Source: Minisyncoccota bacterium
GTDB taxonomy: Bacteria > Patescibacteriota > Minisyncoccia > Phycocordibacterales > UBA5272
Length of the DNA: 64,000 nucleotides
Assembly: GCA_041651055.1 (NCBI GenBank)
Contig: JBAZJW010000001.1
Location: 242,661 to 306,660, forward strand
Reading direction: 5' to 3'
This document shows positions 46,456 to 52,284 of the stretch, one piece after another (positions within the stretch are counted from its first letter, which is position 1; every line of letters begins with the position of its first letter). Both the position numbers and the translations under genes were made by a program. The notes under the pieces are model-generated. The model was not told the DNA's origin, did not search any database, and worked only from the letters and a program-made list of their open reading frames with translations.

Positions 46456-46530
46456 TCCGCGGTAGCTCAGCGGTAGAGCAGCTCGCTGTTAACGAGTTGG
46501 TCGTAGGTTCGATCCCTACCCGCGGAGCCA
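46456..46530 (+). tRNA. tRNA-Asn (anticodon GUU), CCA encoded
   Basis: Hand-folded cloverleaf: acceptor TCCGCGG/CCGCGGA, D arm GCTC-AGCGGTA-GAGC, anticodon arm GCTCG-CTGTTAA-CGAGT, variable loop TGGTC, T arm GTAGG-TTCGATC-CCTAC, discriminator G, CCA. Confidence 0.9.
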
Positions 46531-46537
46531 AGCATTG

Positions 46538-46577
46538 AAAACTAAAATACCCCTTTCATGGGGGTATTTTAGTTTTC
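46538..46577 (+). terminator. perfect hairpin AAAACTAAAATACCCC-TTTCATG-GGGGTATTTTAGTTTT after the tRNA
   Basis: 16-bp arms. Confidence 0.7.
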
Positions 46578-46593
46578 AACAGTTTCCCAGCGG

Positions 46594-46695
46594 GTAGGGA
46601 TCGAACCGAAGGTCCACATTTTTAATGACTGAAAGGAATATAAAAATGTAGGATCCCGACCAACGGGAGGGGCGATCCCTACCCTGAAAAATAAA
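46594..46695. other. structured segment built from inverted and direct partial copies of the tRNA-Asn T-arm/acceptor 3' end
   Basis: CGGGTAGGGATCGAACC (reverse complement of the tRNA 3' half) and GGGGCGATCCCTACCC (direct copy) enclose an inner hairpin CCACATTTTTA...TAAAAATGTAGG. Confidence 0.5.
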
Positions 46696-46748
46696 ACACC
46701 TACCCCACAACCCTTGCATAATAAAAAAAATTATTCTAGTATAAAAAC

Positions 46749-47139
46749 GTGTTCATTGGTATAGCGGATGTCAAAACGGCAGGTCAGAGCATGCGAAAAT
46801 ATTGCTCCAGAGGTCATCCCAGGTGGCAACATTTGAGAGCCTTTGCAGAATGCTTCTTGTGAGGACAAGGAGCCGACACTGTGTGGTTCGACCCCACAAC
46901 CTAACGAAAACTATAGGTTTTGATGCGCACTAATAGGATGGAGACTGCGACGTTGTACTTCCGGGTACGATCGAGTCAACCCTGAGAGACATCCCTTCAA
47001 AACTGATAAAAGCGAAATCTATAGGGTGCTAATTTGGTGGAGGTTCACTCCTTGCCATAAGAGGCCCGATACCTGAGGTCACTAACCCCGAGACCAGAGA
47101 GTAGCTTTAGTCGGTAGTCATCCAAGTACCAATGAACAC
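46749..47139 (+). ncRNA. candidate ~390-nt structured ncRNA of unresolved identity
   Basis: Ends pair over 13 bp (GTGTTCATTGGTA / TACCAATGAACAC). No ORF of 60 aa or more in any frame. Internal T-arm-like GTGTGGTTCGACCCCACA. Followed at once by a terminator. Confidence 0.4.
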
Positions 47140-47147
47140 ACACTTAC

Positions 47148-47176
47148 CAAACCGCCTCCAGCGGTTTTTCTTTTTC
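47148..47176 (+). terminator. terminator AACCGC-CTCCA-GCGGTT + T-rich run
   Basis: Directly follows the 3' strand of the closing helix of the candidate ncRNA. Confidence 0.6.
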
Positions 47177-47234
47177 CCCATATAATAAAGTTACCACCAT
47201 CTACTTACTTAAAAAAGATTACTTCCTTGCACCA

Positions 47235-47252
47235 ATACCCCCTAGGGGGTAT
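47235..47252. promoter_or_regulatory. candidate CsoR operator: perfect 18-bp GC-core palindrome ATACCCCCTAGGGGGTAT overlapping the csoR -10 (TATACT)
   Basis: Palindrome ends 9 nt before the csoR ATG; CsoR-family operators are TACCC-type GC-rich palindromes. Confidence 0.6.
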
Positions 47253-47261
47253 ACTATTTTC

Positions 47262-47525
47262 ATGAACCAAGATATTCCAAAACTCATACGTCGCCTTAAA
47301 ATTATAGAAGGACAAGTTCGTGGCTTACAAGAAATGTTAGAAAAGAAAACATACTGTATCGACGTCATCACACAAACCTCTGCCATCAAACAGGCCCTCT
47401 CCACCATAGAAGACGCCCTCATGGAAGGACACCTCGAGCACTGCGTCGTCGACCAAGCAAAAAAAGGTCAACTAGAAAAAATAAAAAGTGAAGTTCTTAA
47501 AGTGTATCGTCTAAAAAGAAAATAA
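47262..47525 (+). CDS. csoR: CsoR/RcnR-family metal-sensing transcriptional repressor
   Basis: 87 aa; C-x(n)-H-x3-C-type ligand pattern (YCIDV ... HLEHC); four-helix-bundle family size. Confidence 0.8.
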   Translation: MNQDIPKLIRRLKIIEGQVRGLQEMLEKKTYCIDVITQTSAIKQALSTIEDALMEGHLEHCVVDQAKKGQLEKIKSEVLKVYRLKRK

Positions 47526-47526
47526 T

Positions 47527-48732
47527 ATGAGCTGTACATTATGCGCCGAGGGAGGTATCAAAAACTTTAAAGACTTCAATGAATCATGCTTTTGTAGTAC
47601 AAAAGACCAAGAATCTCCCTATGGCAATTTCTCTTCACATTCGGCCGTCTTTCTCTCTCATGCCATTGTAGAAAATATACATGCAAGTATTACTGTTCTA
47701 GAAAAAACAATACGAAGCAGCTATTTTGCAGACTTAGTATCCGCCGAAGGCGATCCTATTTCATCAAATACAAATGGAGGACTACTCATGTCGTACGATT
47801 TTCACCTTGACGAAGAAACGCCAAAGCTTATTGAAATAAATACAAACGCTGGCGGATTTTTCCTTAGCTACGAATTATTGAAGGCTTCAAAAAACTGCTG
47901 TACTCATGCCAAGGCTCAAGATATTGAAACCATGGAAGAAACTATCGTGGCAATGTTTCGAAACGAATTCAAAAAAATAAGCGACAAACCATTAGGAACT
48001 GTCGCAATTGTCGACGAGAATCCAAGTGGACAATTTTTGTATCCAGAATTCCAAATTTGCAAAGACATTTTAGAAAAACATGGAATAACGACATACATCC
48101 TAAGCCCCGAAGAAATCACAGTAGAGCATGAGATGGCATACTATGAAGGAAAAGTCATAGACCTCATCTACAATAGACTCACCGATTTTTATTTCAACGA
48201 AGAAAAGAATGCAAAGTTTATTCCCCTTCTCAGAAATACAAAAACGCTCATCTCACCAAGCCTGGATGACCACAAGCTCTTTGCCGATAAAATTAATTTT
48301 ATACACTTTCAAAACCCCGCCACCTATAAAGACACACTCTCCCTAGATGAGATAACAACCCTTACCACCAGTATCCCTGAAACAAAATTAGTAACCCTTG
48401 AAAATAAAGACACACTGTGGGAAGGCCGAAAAAAATATTTCTTTAAACCTCTAAATAGCTACGGAAGCAAAGGTGCCTATAATGGCAAAGGGTTAACCAA
48501 AAAAGTATGGGAATCTATAATTACGCAACCATACATCGCTCAAGAGATCGTCAAACCAAATACAAAAATAAAAGAAATTGATGGTGCAGAAGAACCTTTC
48601 AAGTTCGACATAAGGGCATATACCTACAATGGAAAAGTATTACTCTTGGGCGCACGAATATACCGAGGGCAAACAACAAATTTCAGAACGGTTGGTGGCG
48701 GATTCGCCCCCATCTTTCTGACAGAGAATTAA
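47527..48732 (+). CDS. glutathionylspermidine-synthase-like ATP-grasp ligase (YgiC/YjfC family) with an N-terminal Cys-rich extension
   Basis: C-terminal KPLNSYGSKGAYNG ... IRAYTYNGKVLLLGARIY...GGGFAPIF resembles the YgiC/YjfC ATP-grasp core; CxxC/CxC pair at the N-terminus; 1-nt gap after csoR. Confidence 0.55.
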   Translation: MSCTLCAEGGIKNFKDFNESCFCSTKDQESPYGNFSSHSAVFLSHAIVENIHASITVLEKTIRSSYFADLVSAEGDPISSNTNGGLLMSYDFHLDEETPKLIEINTNAGGFFLSYELLKASKNCCTHAKAQDIETMEETIVAMFRNEFKKISDKPLGTVAIVDENPSGQFLYPEFQICKDILEKHGITTYILSPEEITVEHEMAYYEGKVIDLIYNRLTDFYFNEEKNAKFIPLLRNTKTLISPSLDDHKLFADKINFIHFQNPATYKDTLSLDEITTLTTSIPETKLVTLENKDTLWEGRKKYFFKPLNSYGSKGAYNGKGLTKKVWESIITQPYIAQEIVKPNTKIKEIDGAEEPFKFDIRAYTYNGKVLLLGARIYRGQTTNFRTVGGGFAPIFLTEN

Positions 48733-48764
48733 TCATTTAGAAAGAAACATACCTAAACACCATT

Positions 48765-49373
48765 ATGGAAACCACAACAAACAAACCAATCTGCGAGCAG
48801 TGCAAAATGGAATCTACACATACAGAAAAAGACGAAGTGGGTGTAGATCGTTTTTTCTGTGATCATCACTCTCTCACCCTTGCAAACAAAAAGAATGTAA
48901 CTACATTTCAAAAACTTGTACCACTTCTTTATGTCTTTGCAGTAATATTCTTCCTTTCTTCTGTTAGACAATTTGCAACGGGAATAAATCCGTTTCTTTT
49001 CATGATGGATTTTATGGGAATATTCTTTATTGTGTTCGGACTTTTTAAACTCGTCGACTTACGTGGGTTCGTTGAAGGATTTAAGAGTTATGACTTTATT
49101 GCCAAGAGATATACAGCATATGGCTATGCGTATCCTTTTATTGAAATCGCTTTAGGGGTTCTCTACATACTCGGTTTTATGTTCGTATGGCAAACACTGC
49201 TCGTACTATTCTTGTCCGCAATGGGAATATACACTGCATATATAGCGATTAAACACGAAGATGAGATACCATGTGTTTGTCTCGGTACACTTTTTGATTT
49301 CCCTATGACATGGGTCACCTTTACGGAAAATACGATTATGTTTCTTATGGCACTTTTTATGATGGTCATGTGA
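48765..49373 (+). CDS. membrane protein with an N-terminal Cys/His metal-binding motif (CEQC...CDHH) and a MauE/DoxX-like 4-TM domain
   Basis: Four hydrophobic helices after a cytoplasmic CxxC...CxHH segment; internal CVCLG. Confidence 0.55.
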   Translation: METTTNKPICEQCKMESTHTEKDEVGVDRFFCDHHSLTLANKKNVTTFQKLVPLLYVFAVIFFLSSVRQFATGINPFLFMMDFMGIFFIVFGLFKLVDLRGFVEGFKSYDFIAKRYTAYGYAYPFIEIALGVLYILGFMFVWQTLLVLFLSAMGIYTAYIAIKHEDEIPCVCLGTLFDFPMTWVTFTENTIMFLMALFMMVM

Positions 49374-49410
49374 TCTTCATAAAAGAAAAAAATTACTCGC
49401 AAAAACTCCT

Positions 49411-49818
49411 ATGAAAAATAATATACTTTTTGTTTCAAGTCTCTTGGCTCTCGCTGTCGGATTACTTATCGGATATTCTGTCTGGGGTACACGTGCCAAT
49501 GAAAACAACGTAATGTCTTCATCAACATTTGGACACAGAATGCCAAACGGACAAATGATGAACACCTACAGCGGAATGGATATGACAACGACAATGAACG
49601 GAATGATGCAGGAATTGCAGGGTAAAAATGGAGACGCTTTTGATCAAGCATTTTTATCACAGATGATCGTGCATCATCAGGGTGCTGTCGTTATGGCAGA
49701 AGCTGTGCTTAAGACATCAAAAAGGCCAGAGCTTCTTAAGCTTGCGAAGGATATTATCACAGCACAAACTAAAGAGATTGAGATGATGCAAGGTTGGGAG
49801 AGGACATGGTTTAAATAG
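49411..49818 (+). CDS. DUF305-family secreted protein with a Met-rich segment (copper-resistance-associated family)
   Basis: Signal/TM anchor; MPNGQMMNTYSGMDMTTTMNGMM Met-rich motif; DUF305 signature FDQAFLSQMIVHHQGAVVMAE. Confidence 0.7.
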   Translation: MKNNILFVSSLLALAVGLLIGYSVWGTRANENNVMSSSTFGHRMPNGQMMNTYSGMDMTTTMNGMMQELQGKNGDAFDQAFLSQMIVHHQGAVVMAEAVLKTSKRPELLKLAKDIITAQTKEIEMMQGWERTWFK

Positions 49819-49832
49819 TTTTTGTACAACAA

Positions 49833-49860
49833 TAAAAGCGCCCGGCAGGGCGCTTTTATT
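49833..49860 (+). terminator. terminator AAAAGCGCCC-GGCA-GGGCGCTTTT
   Basis: 10-bp GC stem with flanking A/T tracts after the DUF305 gene. Confidence 0.8.
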
Positions 49861-49879
49861 GTTGCCTCATCACTTTACC

Positions 49880-50582: not shown

Positions 50583-51227
50583 ATGCCATTCTTTTATCAA
50601 TTACCAAAAAATGTGCGTGCATGTTTTTCAGGTAAAAATCTTCTTCTACAGGTTACAGCTATTATTCTTACCTATATCATCGTCATTTCCGGTTTTGATT
50701 GGCTGTATTTCACATCAGTACAAGGTCCCTATTTCCATACATACCTTTTCCCAGCCGTTATTATCGGAGGACTTCTTCCTATTTTTGGAACTGGAGCCTT
50801 ATATCTTTTTTCAAAATATACAAAGAACAAATCTCTCACGAATACTTCCTGGGCTCTTGCTCAAGCAAGCTTCCTTGGATGGTTCATTTCTTCTTTTTAC
50901 AAAGCCTTCACAGGAAGAATAGAGCCGGACCTTCATAGCGGAATGTTGTTAGACATTAGCCGAGAATGGAACTTTGGATTTCTCAAGCACGGCATTTTCT
51001 GGGGATGGCCGTCGTCTCATACGGCTGTCGCTTTCGCTATGGCTTTCACGCTCATAATGCTCTATCCGAAAAAGAAAACCATTACCGTTCTCGTTCTCCT
51101 CTATGCTTTTTATATCGGCTTCGGTGTATCAATCGGCATTCATTGGTTCTCCGAATTCATCGCAGGAGCAATTATCGGATCACTCATTGGAACGGTTGTA
51201 GGTAAAAGTTTTCGTACAAGAAAATAA
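50583..51227 (+). CDS. PAP2-superfamily membrane phosphatase
   Basis: KxxxxxxRP-like (TGRIEPD), PSSHT (PSGH) and a downstream H motif; 5-6 TM helices. Confidence 0.65.
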   Translation: MPFFYQLPKNVRACFSGKNLLLQVTAIILTYIIVISGFDWLYFTSVQGPYFHTYLFPAVIIGGLLPIFGTGALYLFSKYTKNKSLTNTSWALAQASFLGWFISSFYKAFTGRIEPDLHSGMLLDISREWNFGFLKHGIFWGWPSSHTAVAFAMAFTLIMLYPKKKTITVLVLLYAFYIGFGVSIGIHWFSEFIAGAIIGSLIGTVVGKSFRTRK

Positions 51228-51315: not shown

Positions 51316-52284
51316 ATGAACACTCGCTCAGCAATCATTACTCTTATAGCAGGCCTCGCATTCATTTCTCTTGGTATATTCTGGTATACCCGTGAACAAG
51401 CATACCTTTCCATAACAACGTTTGATGAGTGTGTTGCTGCGGGCTACCCTATTCTCGAAACCTATCCAGAACAATGTCAGACTCCGGATAAACGCCTCCT
51501 TGTAAACAAGAAGCAGATTCCTTCACAAACCATTTCCACTTCAACTGTCACAGGAAAAGAGAACCTCATATATCTCGACAATCTCTCATCAGGCCAGACA
51601 GTAACCAGTCCCGTTACCATTTCTGGGTCTGCTCGTGGCAACTGGTATTTCGAAGCATCCTTCGGTGTCGAAGTTGTTGATGGAAATGGCACTCGTTTAA
51701 CAATGCAACCAGCACAAGCGAAGTCTGATTGGATGACGGAAAACTTTGTGCCTTTTTCGGTAACACTCACTTTTCCGCAACCCCTCACTGCAACAGGGGC
51801 AATTGTTTTCCATAAAGATAATCCGAGCGGGATACCTTTAAACGATGATGAGCTACGTATTCCGGTGCTTTTCAAGCAAGCAGAACGCACTGTGAAGCTC
51901 TACTATTACAACAGTGCTCTTGATAAAGATTCAAAAGGAAATATTCTCTGCTCTGCGAAAGGTCTTATGCCTGTAACCCGCACTATCAAAGTATCGAAGA
52001 CCCCTCTACAAGATACACTTCGTCTCTTCTTGTTAGGAGACATATCTCAAGAAGAAAAAATAGAAGGTGTTTCGAGTGAATTCCCTCTTTTAGGAGTTTC
52101 ACTCGCTTCCGCCACTATTACAGGAAGTGGTCTCACCACGATTACGTTACTTGACCCAAATAACAAAACAAGCGGAGGGTCCTGCAGAGTAAACATTCTC
52201 CGTGCACAATTAGAAGCAACAGCAAAACAATTCGAAACCGTAAAGAAAATCATTATAGTACCTGAAACTATTTTCCAACCATAA
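51316..52284 (+). CDS. Gmad2 / GerMN-domain lipoprotein-like protein
   Basis: N-terminal TM helix, Ig-like middle, GerMN-like C-terminus (LYYYNSALDKD...). Confidence 0.55.
   Translation: MNTRSAIITLIAGLAFISLGIFWYTREQAYLSITTFDECVAAGYPILETYPEQCQTPDKRLLVNKKQIPSQTISTSTVTGKENLIYLDNLSSGQTVTSPVTISGSARGNWYFEASFGVEVVDGNGTRLTMQPAQAKSDWMTENFVPFSVTLTFPQPLTATGAIVFHKDNPSGIPLNDDELRIPVLFKQAERTVKLYYYNSALDKDSKGNILCSAKGLMPVTRTIKVSKTPLQDTLRLFLLGDISQEEKIEGVSSEFPLLGVSLASATITGSGLTTITLLDPNNKTSGGSCRVNILRAQLEATAKQFETVKKIIIVPETIFQP

Follow-up and report, generated by a model that had tools for sequence, protein, structure and literature searches.

A CsoR operon without CopA or CopZ genes in a Minisyncoccota bacterium, and the uncurated family of ATP-grasp ligases to which its first structural gene belongs

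What does a repressor of the CsoR family govern when its operon carries neither a P-type ATPase gene nor a CopZ gene? The question is raised by a locus in a stretch of 64,000 nucleotides (nt) from a Minisyncoccota bacterium (GenBank assembly GCA_041651055.1, contig JBAZJW010000001.1, positions 242,661 to 306,660), here called the window, in which csoR is followed by the genes of an ATP-grasp ligase, a MauE-like membrane protein and a DUF305 protein. With the canonical CsoR regulons, such as csoR-copZ-copA of Bacillus and the cso operon and RicR regulon of Mycobacterium, the locus appears to share an autoregulated CsoR with a C-H-C set of ligands, and a palindromic operator with G/C tracts that overlaps the promoter, but it differs from them in its cargo, which consists of the ligase, the MauE-like protein and the DUF305 protein, joined in relatives by a pump of the resistance-nodulation-division (RND) type. 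An earlier reading, made without database searches (the sequence-only reading), had taken the locus for a CsoR-controlled metal operon devoid of CopA and CopZ, with an ATP-grasp amide ligase as its first structural gene, and this description has stood. The elements of the locus, all on the forward strand save the palindromic operator, to which no strand is assigned, are the following:

47227 to 47255, forward strand: putative csoR promoter, with a -35 element TTGCAC (47227-47232), a 17-nt spacer and a -10 element TATACT (47250-47255)
47235 to 47252, no strand: putative CsoR operator, the perfect 18-bp palindrome ATACCCCCTAGGGGGTAT, overlapping the spacer and the -10 element
47262 to 47525, forward strand: csoR, 87 amino acids, PF02583 at E=1.6e-24 (86.5 bits against a cut-off of 22.8)
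47527 to 48732, forward strand: gene of a 401-amino-acid, predicted circularly permuted ATP-grasp ligase, here named GRASP, recognized by its fold and motifs
48765 to 49373, forward strand: gene of a MauE-like membrane protein, 202 amino acids, PF07291 at E=7.5e-15 (55.8 bits against a cut-off of 27)
49411 to 49818, forward strand: gene of a DUF305/CopM-like protein, 135 amino acids, PF03713 at E=5.6e-22 (78.9 bits against a cut-off of 27)
49830 to 49861, forward strand: terminator-like hairpin CAATAAAAGCGCCC-GGCA-GGGCGCTTTTATTG, with a 14-bp stem, a GGCA loop and a T-rich tail, read from the sequence

The four open reading frames that had been described are all present at their positions, GRASP does begin 1 nt past the stop codon of csoR, and the terminator that had been seen 3′ of the DUF305 gene was found again. 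The successive intergenic gaps measure 1, 32 and 37 nt, and the operator at the 5′ end and the terminator at the 3′ end bracket the four genes, which read as a single csoR-GRASP-MauE-DUF305 operon.

The palindrome ATACCCCCTAGGGGGTAT ends 9 nt ahead of the ATG of csoR, and this ATG sits only 6 nt past the -10 element, so that the transcript is probably leaderless. The promoter is absent from the list produced by an automated promoter scan because its -35 element agrees at only three of six positions. The pattern ATACCC-N2-10-GGGTAT, to which the operator conforms, occurs twice in the whole window; it is also found 5′ of csoR in every relative of the Paceibacterota type, and once in an actinobacterial locus (L053) which likewise encodes a CsoR. 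In four of the related loci (L003, L010, L096 and L097) the entire layout recurs 5′ of csoR, in the order TTGAC[A/G], ATACCC-N-GGGTAT, TATACT, about 8 nt, and ATG. Because of this operator-promoter layout and its conservation in relatives, autoregulation of the window operon by its CsoR is well supported. As for the effector, the ligand-type residues read from the translation are Cys32 (in TYCIDV) and His57-x3-Cys61 (in GHLEHC), and the x-C-H-C fingerprint, in which helix 2 supplies a Cys and helix 3 a His-x3-Cys, is that of the Cu(I)-sensing CsoR proteins; the residue set thus reads as C-H-C ligands of the Cu(I) type. The best NCBIfam match of the protein is RicR (E=1.1e-18, under the exception-level cut-off of that model), and the protein stays below the cut-offs of RicR, RcnR and FrmR alike. 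Judged from these features, Cu(I) is very probably the inducer, and we hold with considerable confidence that the operon is copper-responsive.

GRASP of the window is 100% identical to an NCBI protein from a metagenome-assembled genome of Candidatus Paceibacterota, encoded on a 775-kb contig. Homologues with 50-58% identity to it are encoded by similar bacteria with small genomes, one of them labelled Minisyncoccia at NCBI, and a comparison of the csoR neighbourhoods in these lineages shows that both the gene order and the operator recur. In L003, whose GRASP is 56% identical, csoR-GRASP-MauE-DUF305 is followed by two genes for proteins of unknown function, a membrane-fusion protein and an RND transporter; in L010 and L011 (about 52%) the same four genes are likewise followed by those of the membrane-fusion protein and the RND transporter; and in L097 (50%) csoR-GRASP-MauE is accompanied by two DUF305 genes, again with the membrane-fusion protein and the RND transporter behind them. 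The genes csoR and GRASP abut or overlap in L003, L010 and L097. In L096 csoR-GRASP is retained, and the MauE-like protein gives way to an HMA-DsbD_2 membrane protein and DUF305 to a cupredoxin-like protein, that is to say, functional replacements at the same positions. From the gene orders of L003, L010, L096 and L097 it therefore follows that the core would consist of csoR and GRASP, a Cys-containing membrane protein, an extracytoplasmic copper-binding protein and, usually, an RND pump, of which the window operon is a short version without the pump. A chance adjacency of these genes was considered and rejected, since the same gene order and operator are repeated in independent relatives. In L010 and L011 (1283-7673) the genes on the 5′ side of the block are those of a large serine recombinase, two DsbA-like proteins, DsbB, an HXXEE protein, a CDF transporter and a LysM/M23 peptidase, which suggests a mobile island for metal and disulfide stress in bacteria of the Candidate Phyla Radiation (CPR).

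The identity of the ligase is the central problem, as GRASP of the window matches nothing in Pfam or NCBIfam, and comparisons with the sequences of the PDB (phmmer, and hmmsearch with a 25-sequence profile) gave only noise. A model built with AlphaFold2 from an alignment of the family, on which the Pfam checks of 25 members mentioned below also rest, reached a pLDDT of 88.7 and a pTM of 0.90, and when it was compared with the PDB by Foldseek there were 53 matches at E<=0.001, the 50 listed being all ATP-grasp ligases. The first is the potato glutathione synthetase 5oes (E=3.8e-16, TM 0.63), followed by the yeast and human glutathione synthetases and the soybean homoglutathione synthetase (E to 6.6e-14, TM 0.59-0.63), then by 3n6x (E=7e-14), Cp1B (E=1.6e-13), YgiC and YjfC, the glutathionylspermidine synthetase GspS and trypanothione synthetase (7uk8, 7uk6, 2io7 and 2vpm, with E=1e-12 to 4e-10). 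The non-permuted GshB, and the ligases of ribosomally synthesized and post-translationally modified peptides (RiPPs), are far weaker, PsnB being found at around E=1e-4. The model thus presents GRASP as a circularly permuted ATP-grasp fold.

The motifs agree with this assignment: IEINTNAGG (102-110) supplies the Mg-binding E-x-N, located in the N-terminal half as in the permuted enzymes, FFKP...YGSKG (305-315) corresponds to the flexible loop, and K359-x-D361-x-R363 and R377...GQTTNFRTxGGGF (381-393) complete the set. Of the 218 members of the family, 216-217 have the residues E103, N105, K307, K359, D361, R363 and R377. FFKP..GyGs and ARIYxGQTTN align with ILKPLDGMGG and ARIPQGGETR of the E. 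coli GshB, and the E-x-N region PKLIEINTNA with PKLLENNADT of YgiC; in hhalign comparisons of the GRASP profile with single E. coli sequences the expected motifs lined up, at probabilities (0.5% for YgiC and 22% for GshB) that are too weak for a residue mapping. With such residues in place, GRASP would be a catalytically competent ATP-grasp ligase.

The sequence-only reading had gone further and placed the protein with YgiC, YjfC and GspS. The fold and the chemistry class of that proposal are supported by Foldseek and the membership in the family is not: GSP_synth (PF03738) has no match to GRASP of the window at E<=0.1 nor to the 25 members at E<=10, GSH_synth_ATP and PF03917/PF03199 have no Pfam match in either, the glutathione synthetase chains of the PDB gave no HMMER match with a single sequence or a profile as query, and the hhalign probability for YgiC is the 0.5% already given. 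The family label was therefore wrong and the fold right. Among the 25 members there are sub-threshold matches to ATPgrasp_YheCD (8 of 25), CP_ATPgrasp_2 (5 of 25, the best match to this family, PF14403, being 2.5e-5) and TTL (1 of 25), and a minority also matches ATP-grasp_3 below threshold. The longer members show no domain fusions, their extensions being of low complexity and without any Pfam domain. GRASP belongs to the ATP-grasp superfamily and to none of its curated families.

Three groups of known enzymes help to delimit it. The glutathione synthetases of the eukaryotic type (5oes, 1m0w, 2hgs, 3kal) are the best fold matches and have the same circular permutation, with E-x-N near the N-terminus, and the human enzyme presumably contains the very pentapeptide IEINT of GRASP; but GRASP is only 11-15% identical to them and about 70 residues shorter, and we know of no glutathione synthetase with the CxC...CC cluster described below. 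GspS, YgiC and YjfC (2io7, 7uk8, 7uk6) and trypanothione synthetase share the fold class and are ATP-dependent amide ligases acting on small thiol peptides or amines; compared with GspS and YgiC, GRASP lacks an amidase domain, and its context is that of metal(loid) resistance islands under the control of metal sensors. The third group is formed by CP_ATPgrasp_2 (PF14403; 3n6x, Mfla_0391), which reportedly has alpha-E and transglutaminase-like proteins as typical partners, and by the fungal E-64 ligase Cp1B (9cjn). Both are fold matches of GRASP, but the matches to CP_ATPgrasp_2 all fall under the thresholds of the family, and no alpha-E or transglutaminase-like partners are present. Cp1B is a proven small-molecule amide ligase, which joins an acid and an amino acid (PMC12568646).

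A feature that sets the family apart is its cysteines, C21-x-C23 and the vicinal pair C124-C125, to which the CPR clade adds C3-x2-C6. Within the 218 members C21 is conserved in 205, C23 in 209, and C124 and C125 in 212; in a broader set of 365 members all four cysteines are found in 264, and the CC pair is kept in 264 of the 297 (89%) that have CxC and in about 9 of the 47 (19%) that do not. The loss of CxC and the loss of CC thus tend to coincide, which suggests a single functional site, with a possible contribution of common descent to the pattern. It had been proposed that the Cys-rich N-terminus was an addition to the ligase; this holds for the clade-specific C3-x2-C6, and fails for C21 and C23, which are near-invariant throughout the family. 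Both CxC and CC are typical of the thiophilic metal(loid) sites of ArsR, CadC, ArsD and the metallothioneins. The most simple hypothesis for CxC...CC is accordingly a site for thiophilic metal(loid)s, a structural zinc site being possible; that the metal gates the activity of the enzyme seems to us doubtful. In the genome sample, Cys-poor forms of GRASP occur in five loci, all outside metal contexts (small numbers), three of which (L023, L058, L059) lie between a DinG-like helicase and MobB/MoeA and encode N-terminally shorter proteins.

The Cys/His-rich membrane protein announced by the sequence-only reading was confirmed as MauE-like by a match to PF07291 above threshold and by the membrane-embedded motif C170-V-C172-L-G, which is invariant in an alignment of 22 homologues. 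Its N-terminal Cys/His motif resembles a metal finger (C10-x2-C13-x-M15 ... F-C32-x-H34-H35) and is predicted to be cytoplasmic. The conserved features of the alignment also include K-C-E-x-C-x-M ... H-(Y/F)-F-C-x-H-H and Met-rich helices. The family is tight and derives mostly from bacteria of the same kind as the host of the window; two distant homologues bear instead, at the N-terminal position, the Pfam heavy-metal-binding domain HMBD (PF19335). These motifs, the HMBD homologues and the HMA-DsbD_2 replacement in L096 argue for a membrane conduit for Cu(I), or for a carrier of reducing equivalents or thiols, the latter paralleling by analogy what Scs/DsbD systems do in copper tolerance. In the same vein, the Scs/DsbD and the Mer transport proteins combine paired membrane cysteines with a cytosolic or periplasmic Cys motif in soft-metal loci; the protein of the window differs from them in belonging to the MauE/DoxX family (PF07291) and in having no thioredoxin-like partner in the window. 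The DUF305 protein, for its part, had been described as secreted and Met-rich; it matches PF03713, has an N-terminal signal or anchor helix, a Met-rich stretch (residues ~42-66) and an HHxGA motif, and is CopM-like, its match to the NCBIfam CopM model NF049983 (E=5.4e-20, 71.2 bits) falling under the curated cut-off of 90. The adjacency of DUF305 and GRASP is also seen in alphaproteobacteria (L019, and Mesorhizobium INR15).

The distribution of GRASP extends far beyond the CPR bacteria. A profile search that covered 1.84 billion cluster representatives recovered 985 clusters (at 50% identity) with E<=1e-30 and 3055 with E<=1e-3, and there are at least 599 loci in the species genomes of GTDB, the best 80 of which served for the neighbourhood counts, with the neighbours clustered and annotated with Pfam. 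A metagenome scan with the single GRASP protein found four loci only, the back-translated patterns being too specific. The 80 loci come mostly from Proteobacteria, with Bacteriovoracaceae/Bdellovibrionales, Acidobacteriota and one actinobacterium of the Iamiaceae, and the family has members in Leptospira as well. Metal genes lie within 6 kb in at least 37 of the 80 (ars in 20, copper in 12, zinc in 7), a lower bound imposed by crude gene calling and a count that has no formal background control. The clusters of neighbours include ArsC of both types, Acr3, ArsH, AqpS, ArsP with a small thioredoxin, and GAPDH-ArsJ, and furthermore multicopper oxidase, P-type ATPases with YHS/HMBD, DUF305, CDF and CzcA. 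Thus, Leptospira licerasiae has ArsR-Acr3-ArsC-GRASP, and Cellvibrio has ArsR-GAPDH-ArsJ-x-GRASP-x-CzcCBA; ArsR stands immediately 5′ of GRASP on the same strand in L014, L035, L049 and L075; the actinobacterial locus L053 groups MauE, CsoR, GRASP, a P-type ATPase and DUF305; and in L098 GRASP is found beside a multicopper oxidase, a CueR-like regulator of the MerR family, CopA, CopZ and DUF411.

Plasmids tell much the same story. PLSDB contains 31 with GRASP, annotated as hypothetical wherever the feature is listed, and metal genes were seen near it in eight of the nine inspected. In pMR68 the order is merT-P-F-A-B ... flavoprotein-GRASP, in Moraxella osloensis p1 copA-copB-DUF305-ATPase-tatABC-GRASP-Tn3, in Mesorhizobium INR15 cueR-ATPase and DUF305-GRASP, and in Sphingobium pF1 IS6100-CDF-GRASP-IS6100; copB lies 5 kb from GRASP in a Phenylobacterium plasmid, and metal genes are likewise present in pSinB (from a gold-mine Sinorhizobium), pHAL1 (Halomonas sp. 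HAL1) and pPNAP02. The ninth, pSCD of Sulfuricella, has no metal genes near GRASP; there (L108, 7282-13242) the gene is directly followed by an F-type ATPase operon that begins with atpD and contains AtpZ/AtpI, in an order like that of the N-ATPases. The common denominator of the metal contexts is the soft, thiophilic character of the metal(loid)s involved. That the ligase recurs in resistance islands for arsenic, copper, mercury and zinc in many phyla is the most informative fact about it, and one that the sequence-only reading had not seen.

Some of the neighbours are enzymes of small-molecule metabolism. An AsnO-like amidotransferase (called 'N-acetylglutaminylglutamine amidotransferase' in RefSeq) is directly 3′ of GRASP in six loci of the Comamonadaceae, where GRASP is a longer paralogue (L103, 8013-11471, in Polaromonas pPNAP02, and L051, L057, L063, L068 and L080), and the two enzymes may form a two-step route to an amidated peptide; in the genomic loci of this family a GGDEF/EAL protein often comes next after the AsnO-like gene. 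In pMR68, a flavoprotein of the HFCD type (PF02441, of the Cys-decarboxylase family) lies directly 5′ of GRASP. When HFCD, DUF2933 and DUF5676 partners were sought in all loci, HFCD turned up in pMR68 alone, and the AsnO-like gene does not occur beyond a single lineage of Comamonadaceae, so that both pairings are hints and not rules; as hints, they point to a small-molecule product with a free carboxylate. A different setting is seen in Dechloromonas, Azonexus, Accumulibacter and Zoogloea (L023, L058, L059, L060 and L091), where GRASP is located between a DinG-like helicase and mobB-moeA; in L060 and L091 all four cysteines are kept.

Past the terminator of the window operon, three further genes follow:

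49859/49961 to 50521, forward strand: gene of a C39-like cysteine peptidase, PF13529 at E=2.2e-16, without an ABC-transporter domain
50583 to 51227, forward strand: gene of a PAP2 phosphatase, PF01569 at E=2.6e-13
51316 to 52284, forward strand: gene of a protein with a Gmad2 Ig-like domain, after PAP2

The start of the C39-like gene is 49961 in the gene calls of the source assembly, about 140 nt past the DUF305 gene. The sequence-only reading had listed the peptidase and the phosphatase after this terminator in its account of the locus. All three genes are absent from the operons of L003, L010, L096 and L097, the C39-like gene from all the other contexts as well, and since they lie behind the terminator and are missing from the homologous operons, they were rejected as operon partners.

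If these elements are put together, the following sequence of events may be proposed. Without Cu(I), a tetramer of CsoR would occupy the 18-bp palindrome over the -10 element of the leaderless promoter; the binding of Cu(I) at Cys32/His57/Cys61 would release it, and csoR, GRASP and the MauE-like and DUF305 genes would be transcribed together. GRASP, a cytosolic ligase, would form an amide bond through an acyl-phosphate intermediate, giving a small peptide or amide, probably containing cysteine or another thiol, that would buffer or escort soft metal(loid)s, and the CxC...CC cluster would couple this activity to the metal load. The MauE-like protein would use the CxC in the membrane and the Cys/His finger on the cytosolic side to pass Cu(I), or reducing equivalents or a thiol, across the membrane, outside which the DUF305/CopM-like protein would bind copper and, in the sister lineages, hand it to the RND pump encoded immediately downstream. 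In other words, the operon would be derepressed by Cu(I) and would contain a ligase that makes a small, probably thiol, amide or peptide under soft-metal stress, a reading to which we assign a probability of about 0.6. The small amide or thiol is proposed because the nearest folds are thiol-peptide ligases, the stresses are thiophilic and two lineage-specific neighbours act on small-molecule carboxylates. The thiol-containing chelator or modified peptide suggested by the sequence-only reading would be a reasonable candidate for the product. Taken separately, the participation of GRASP in metal(loid) tolerance appears reasonably probable, as does its being a ligase of small molecules instead of a modifier of proteins, and the thiol nature of the product is a tentative idea, more doubtful than probable.

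Several observations weigh against this copper-derepressed, ligase-based reading. About half of the proteobacterial loci have no recognized metal gene within 6 kb, some clades reside in other settings altogether (helicase-MobB-MoeA, GGDEF/EAL, the N-ATPase operon), and the enrichment of metal genes around GRASP has no formal background control. AsnO accompanies GRASP in a single lineage, and HFCD does so on a single plasmid. The idea of a thiol derives only from the similarity of the predicted fold to glutathione synthetase (11-15% identity, TM about 0.6) and from the soft-metal contexts. Finally, CPR bacteria are thought to have little biosynthesis of amino acids or thiols, so that gamma-Glu-Cys as a substrate may be unavailable to GRASP.

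Alternative explanations concern the substrate, the product and the signal. GRASP could modify a protein or a peptide, in the manner of the RimK-, TTL- or RiPP-type ATP-grasp enzymes, adding residues or forming cross-links under metal stress, as several circularly permuted and YheCD-type families are predicted to do, and the weak matches of family members to ATPgrasp_YheCD, CP_ATPgrasp_2 and TTL, together with a C39-like peptidase, of a family that processes leader peptides, 140 nt downstream in the window, would fit this idea. However, no conserved small open reading frame or precursor was found beside GRASP, its neighbours are wholly different from one lineage to another around a constant GRASP, the C39-like gene is past the terminator and absent from all homologous operons, and the top folds are those of small-molecule ligases (glutathione synthetase, GspS, YgiC, Cp1B), with the RiPP enzyme PsnB only at about E=1e-4; this alternative is quite unlikely. 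A RiPP- or bacteriocin-type cluster, composed of an ATP-grasp enzyme and a C39 peptidase, was also considered and set aside, there being no conserved co-occurrence of C39 and no precursor.

The product, on the other hand, could be free of thiols, a dipeptide amide like N-acetylglutaminylglutamine amide (NAGGN), an osmolyte or a polyamine conjugate, made by a ligase whose cysteines bind a structural zinc, in which case the location in metal islands would be due to a general protection against stress, or to mobile elements on which the gene hitch-hikes. The downstream AsnO-like gene of six loci, named after NAGGN synthesis, speaks for such a product, as does the RefSeq annotation of YgiC and YjfC as peptide-spermidine ligases; many GRASP loci are on plasmids or transposons with a mixed and unrelated cargo, and PPK2, OsmC and similar genes adjoin GRASP in some of them. 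But GRASP is coupled in transcription to two unrelated sensor families, CsoR in CPR bacteria and Actinobacteria and ArsR in Leptospira and Proteobacteria, which is hard to square with hitch-hiking, thiophilicity is common to all the metals concerned (Cu(I), As(III), Hg(II) and Cd/Zn), CxC with a vicinal CC is, as is well established, commoner in metal(loid) sites than as structural zinc, and the Cys-poor forms, in their five loci, are all outside metal contexts, small as these numbers are, so that we regard a thiol-free product of this kind as unlikely. As to the signal, the CsoR/RcnR family senses diverse effectors, the protein of the window stays under the RicR, RcnR and FrmR cut-offs, and both MauE/DoxX and DsbD_2 have links with the chemistry of thiols and redox reactions, all of which would leave room for nickel or cobalt (RcnR, InrS), persulfide (CstR) or an aldehyde (FrmR) in place of copper. 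Nevertheless, the C-H-C set comes without the N-terminal His of RcnR and InrS and without the C-x-C of CstR, the operator is of the CsoR type with G/C tracts, and the partners are those of copper, namely the Met-rich DUF305/CopM protein and, in L096, an HMA domain and a cupredoxin-like protein, which makes an effector other than copper very improbable.

Returning to the operon derepressed by Cu(I), a bolder form of this reading may be stated, which we consider rather unlikely as a whole: GRASP would be a new, horizontally mobile determinant of resistance to soft metal(loid)s, switched on twice, in transcription through CsoR or ArsR and after translation when CxC...CC takes up Cu(I), As(III), Hg(II) or Cd, and would make a new thiol or peptide of low molecular weight. 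Certain lineages would go on to amidate this product with the AsnO-like enzyme or to decarboxylate it with the HFCD flavoprotein, and it would chelate the metal or escort it to exporters in the membrane, the TRASH/HMBD-like MauE protein for instance. Were this true, the logic of the metal-activated phytochelatins would have a bacterial counterpart driven by ATP.

The non-coding surroundings of csoR contain some features of their own. Upstream lie a tRNA-Asn gene (46456-46530) and then a non-coding stretch of about 430 nt. Directly past the tRNA gene, the core of a 16-bp hairpin is formed by a second palindrome like a CsoR box, ATACCCCTTTCATGGGGGTAT (46547-46567). Apart from the operator itself, nothing else in the 64 kb matches ATACCC-N2-10-GGGTAT; this palindrome may be merely a terminator, or CsoR may bind there too, at a site whose spacer is longer. 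On the reverse strand, at 46590-46607, the 3′ end of the tRNA-Asn is repeated exactly over 18 nt in inverted orientation (GGTTCGATCCCTACCCGC); this copy, 60 nt past the tRNA gene and within an imperfect hairpin of about 100 nt (46585-46690), could be the remnant of a tRNA gene or the scar of an integration; no direct repeat marking the boundary of an island was found elsewhere in the 64-kb window. The non-coding stretch itself (46745-47175, forward strand) is predicted to adopt a multi-branched fold, which a 14-bp helix (gtgttcattggta...taccaatgaacac) closes, and has a terminator of its own at its end (47149-47167); on the forward strand the minimum free energy is -137.8 kcal/mol and z=-3.76, as against z=-1.59 on the reverse strand. 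It has no Rfam match at the gathering or E<=1 thresholds, is absent at the equivalent position of relatives such as L003, and may be an unclassified structured RNA.

Among open-access papers and bioRxiv we found no description of the GRASP family or of the window operon, in agreement with the earlier impression that the arrangement had not been reported for the CsoR family, and the paper on pMR68 left the gene as an unassigned hypothetical. The regulator, the DUF305 protein and the MauE-like protein are members of known families, and the ligase is one of a family not yet curated. What we have before us is probably a CsoR regulon with an unprecedented cargo, and an orphan family of ATP-grasp enzymes with a role in resistance, and there is a real chance that the chemistry of the enzyme is new. 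Few accessory genes of bacteria have been studied as thoroughly as the islands of resistance to copper, arsenic, mercury and zinc, and yet a protein of about 400-430 amino acids within them is called hypothetical wherever it was inspected. It is tied to two unrelated families of metal sensors, travels with cop, ars, mer and czc, and persists in a reduced CPR genome; this coupling to sensors, the mobility and the retention in such a genome suggest a distinct and portable function in metal resistance. If its product were a new thiol or chelator, a biosynthetic arm would be added to a resistance that is usually explained by efflux, reduction and sequestration, and it would give an insight into the handling of copper by CPR bacteria with a minimal metabolism.

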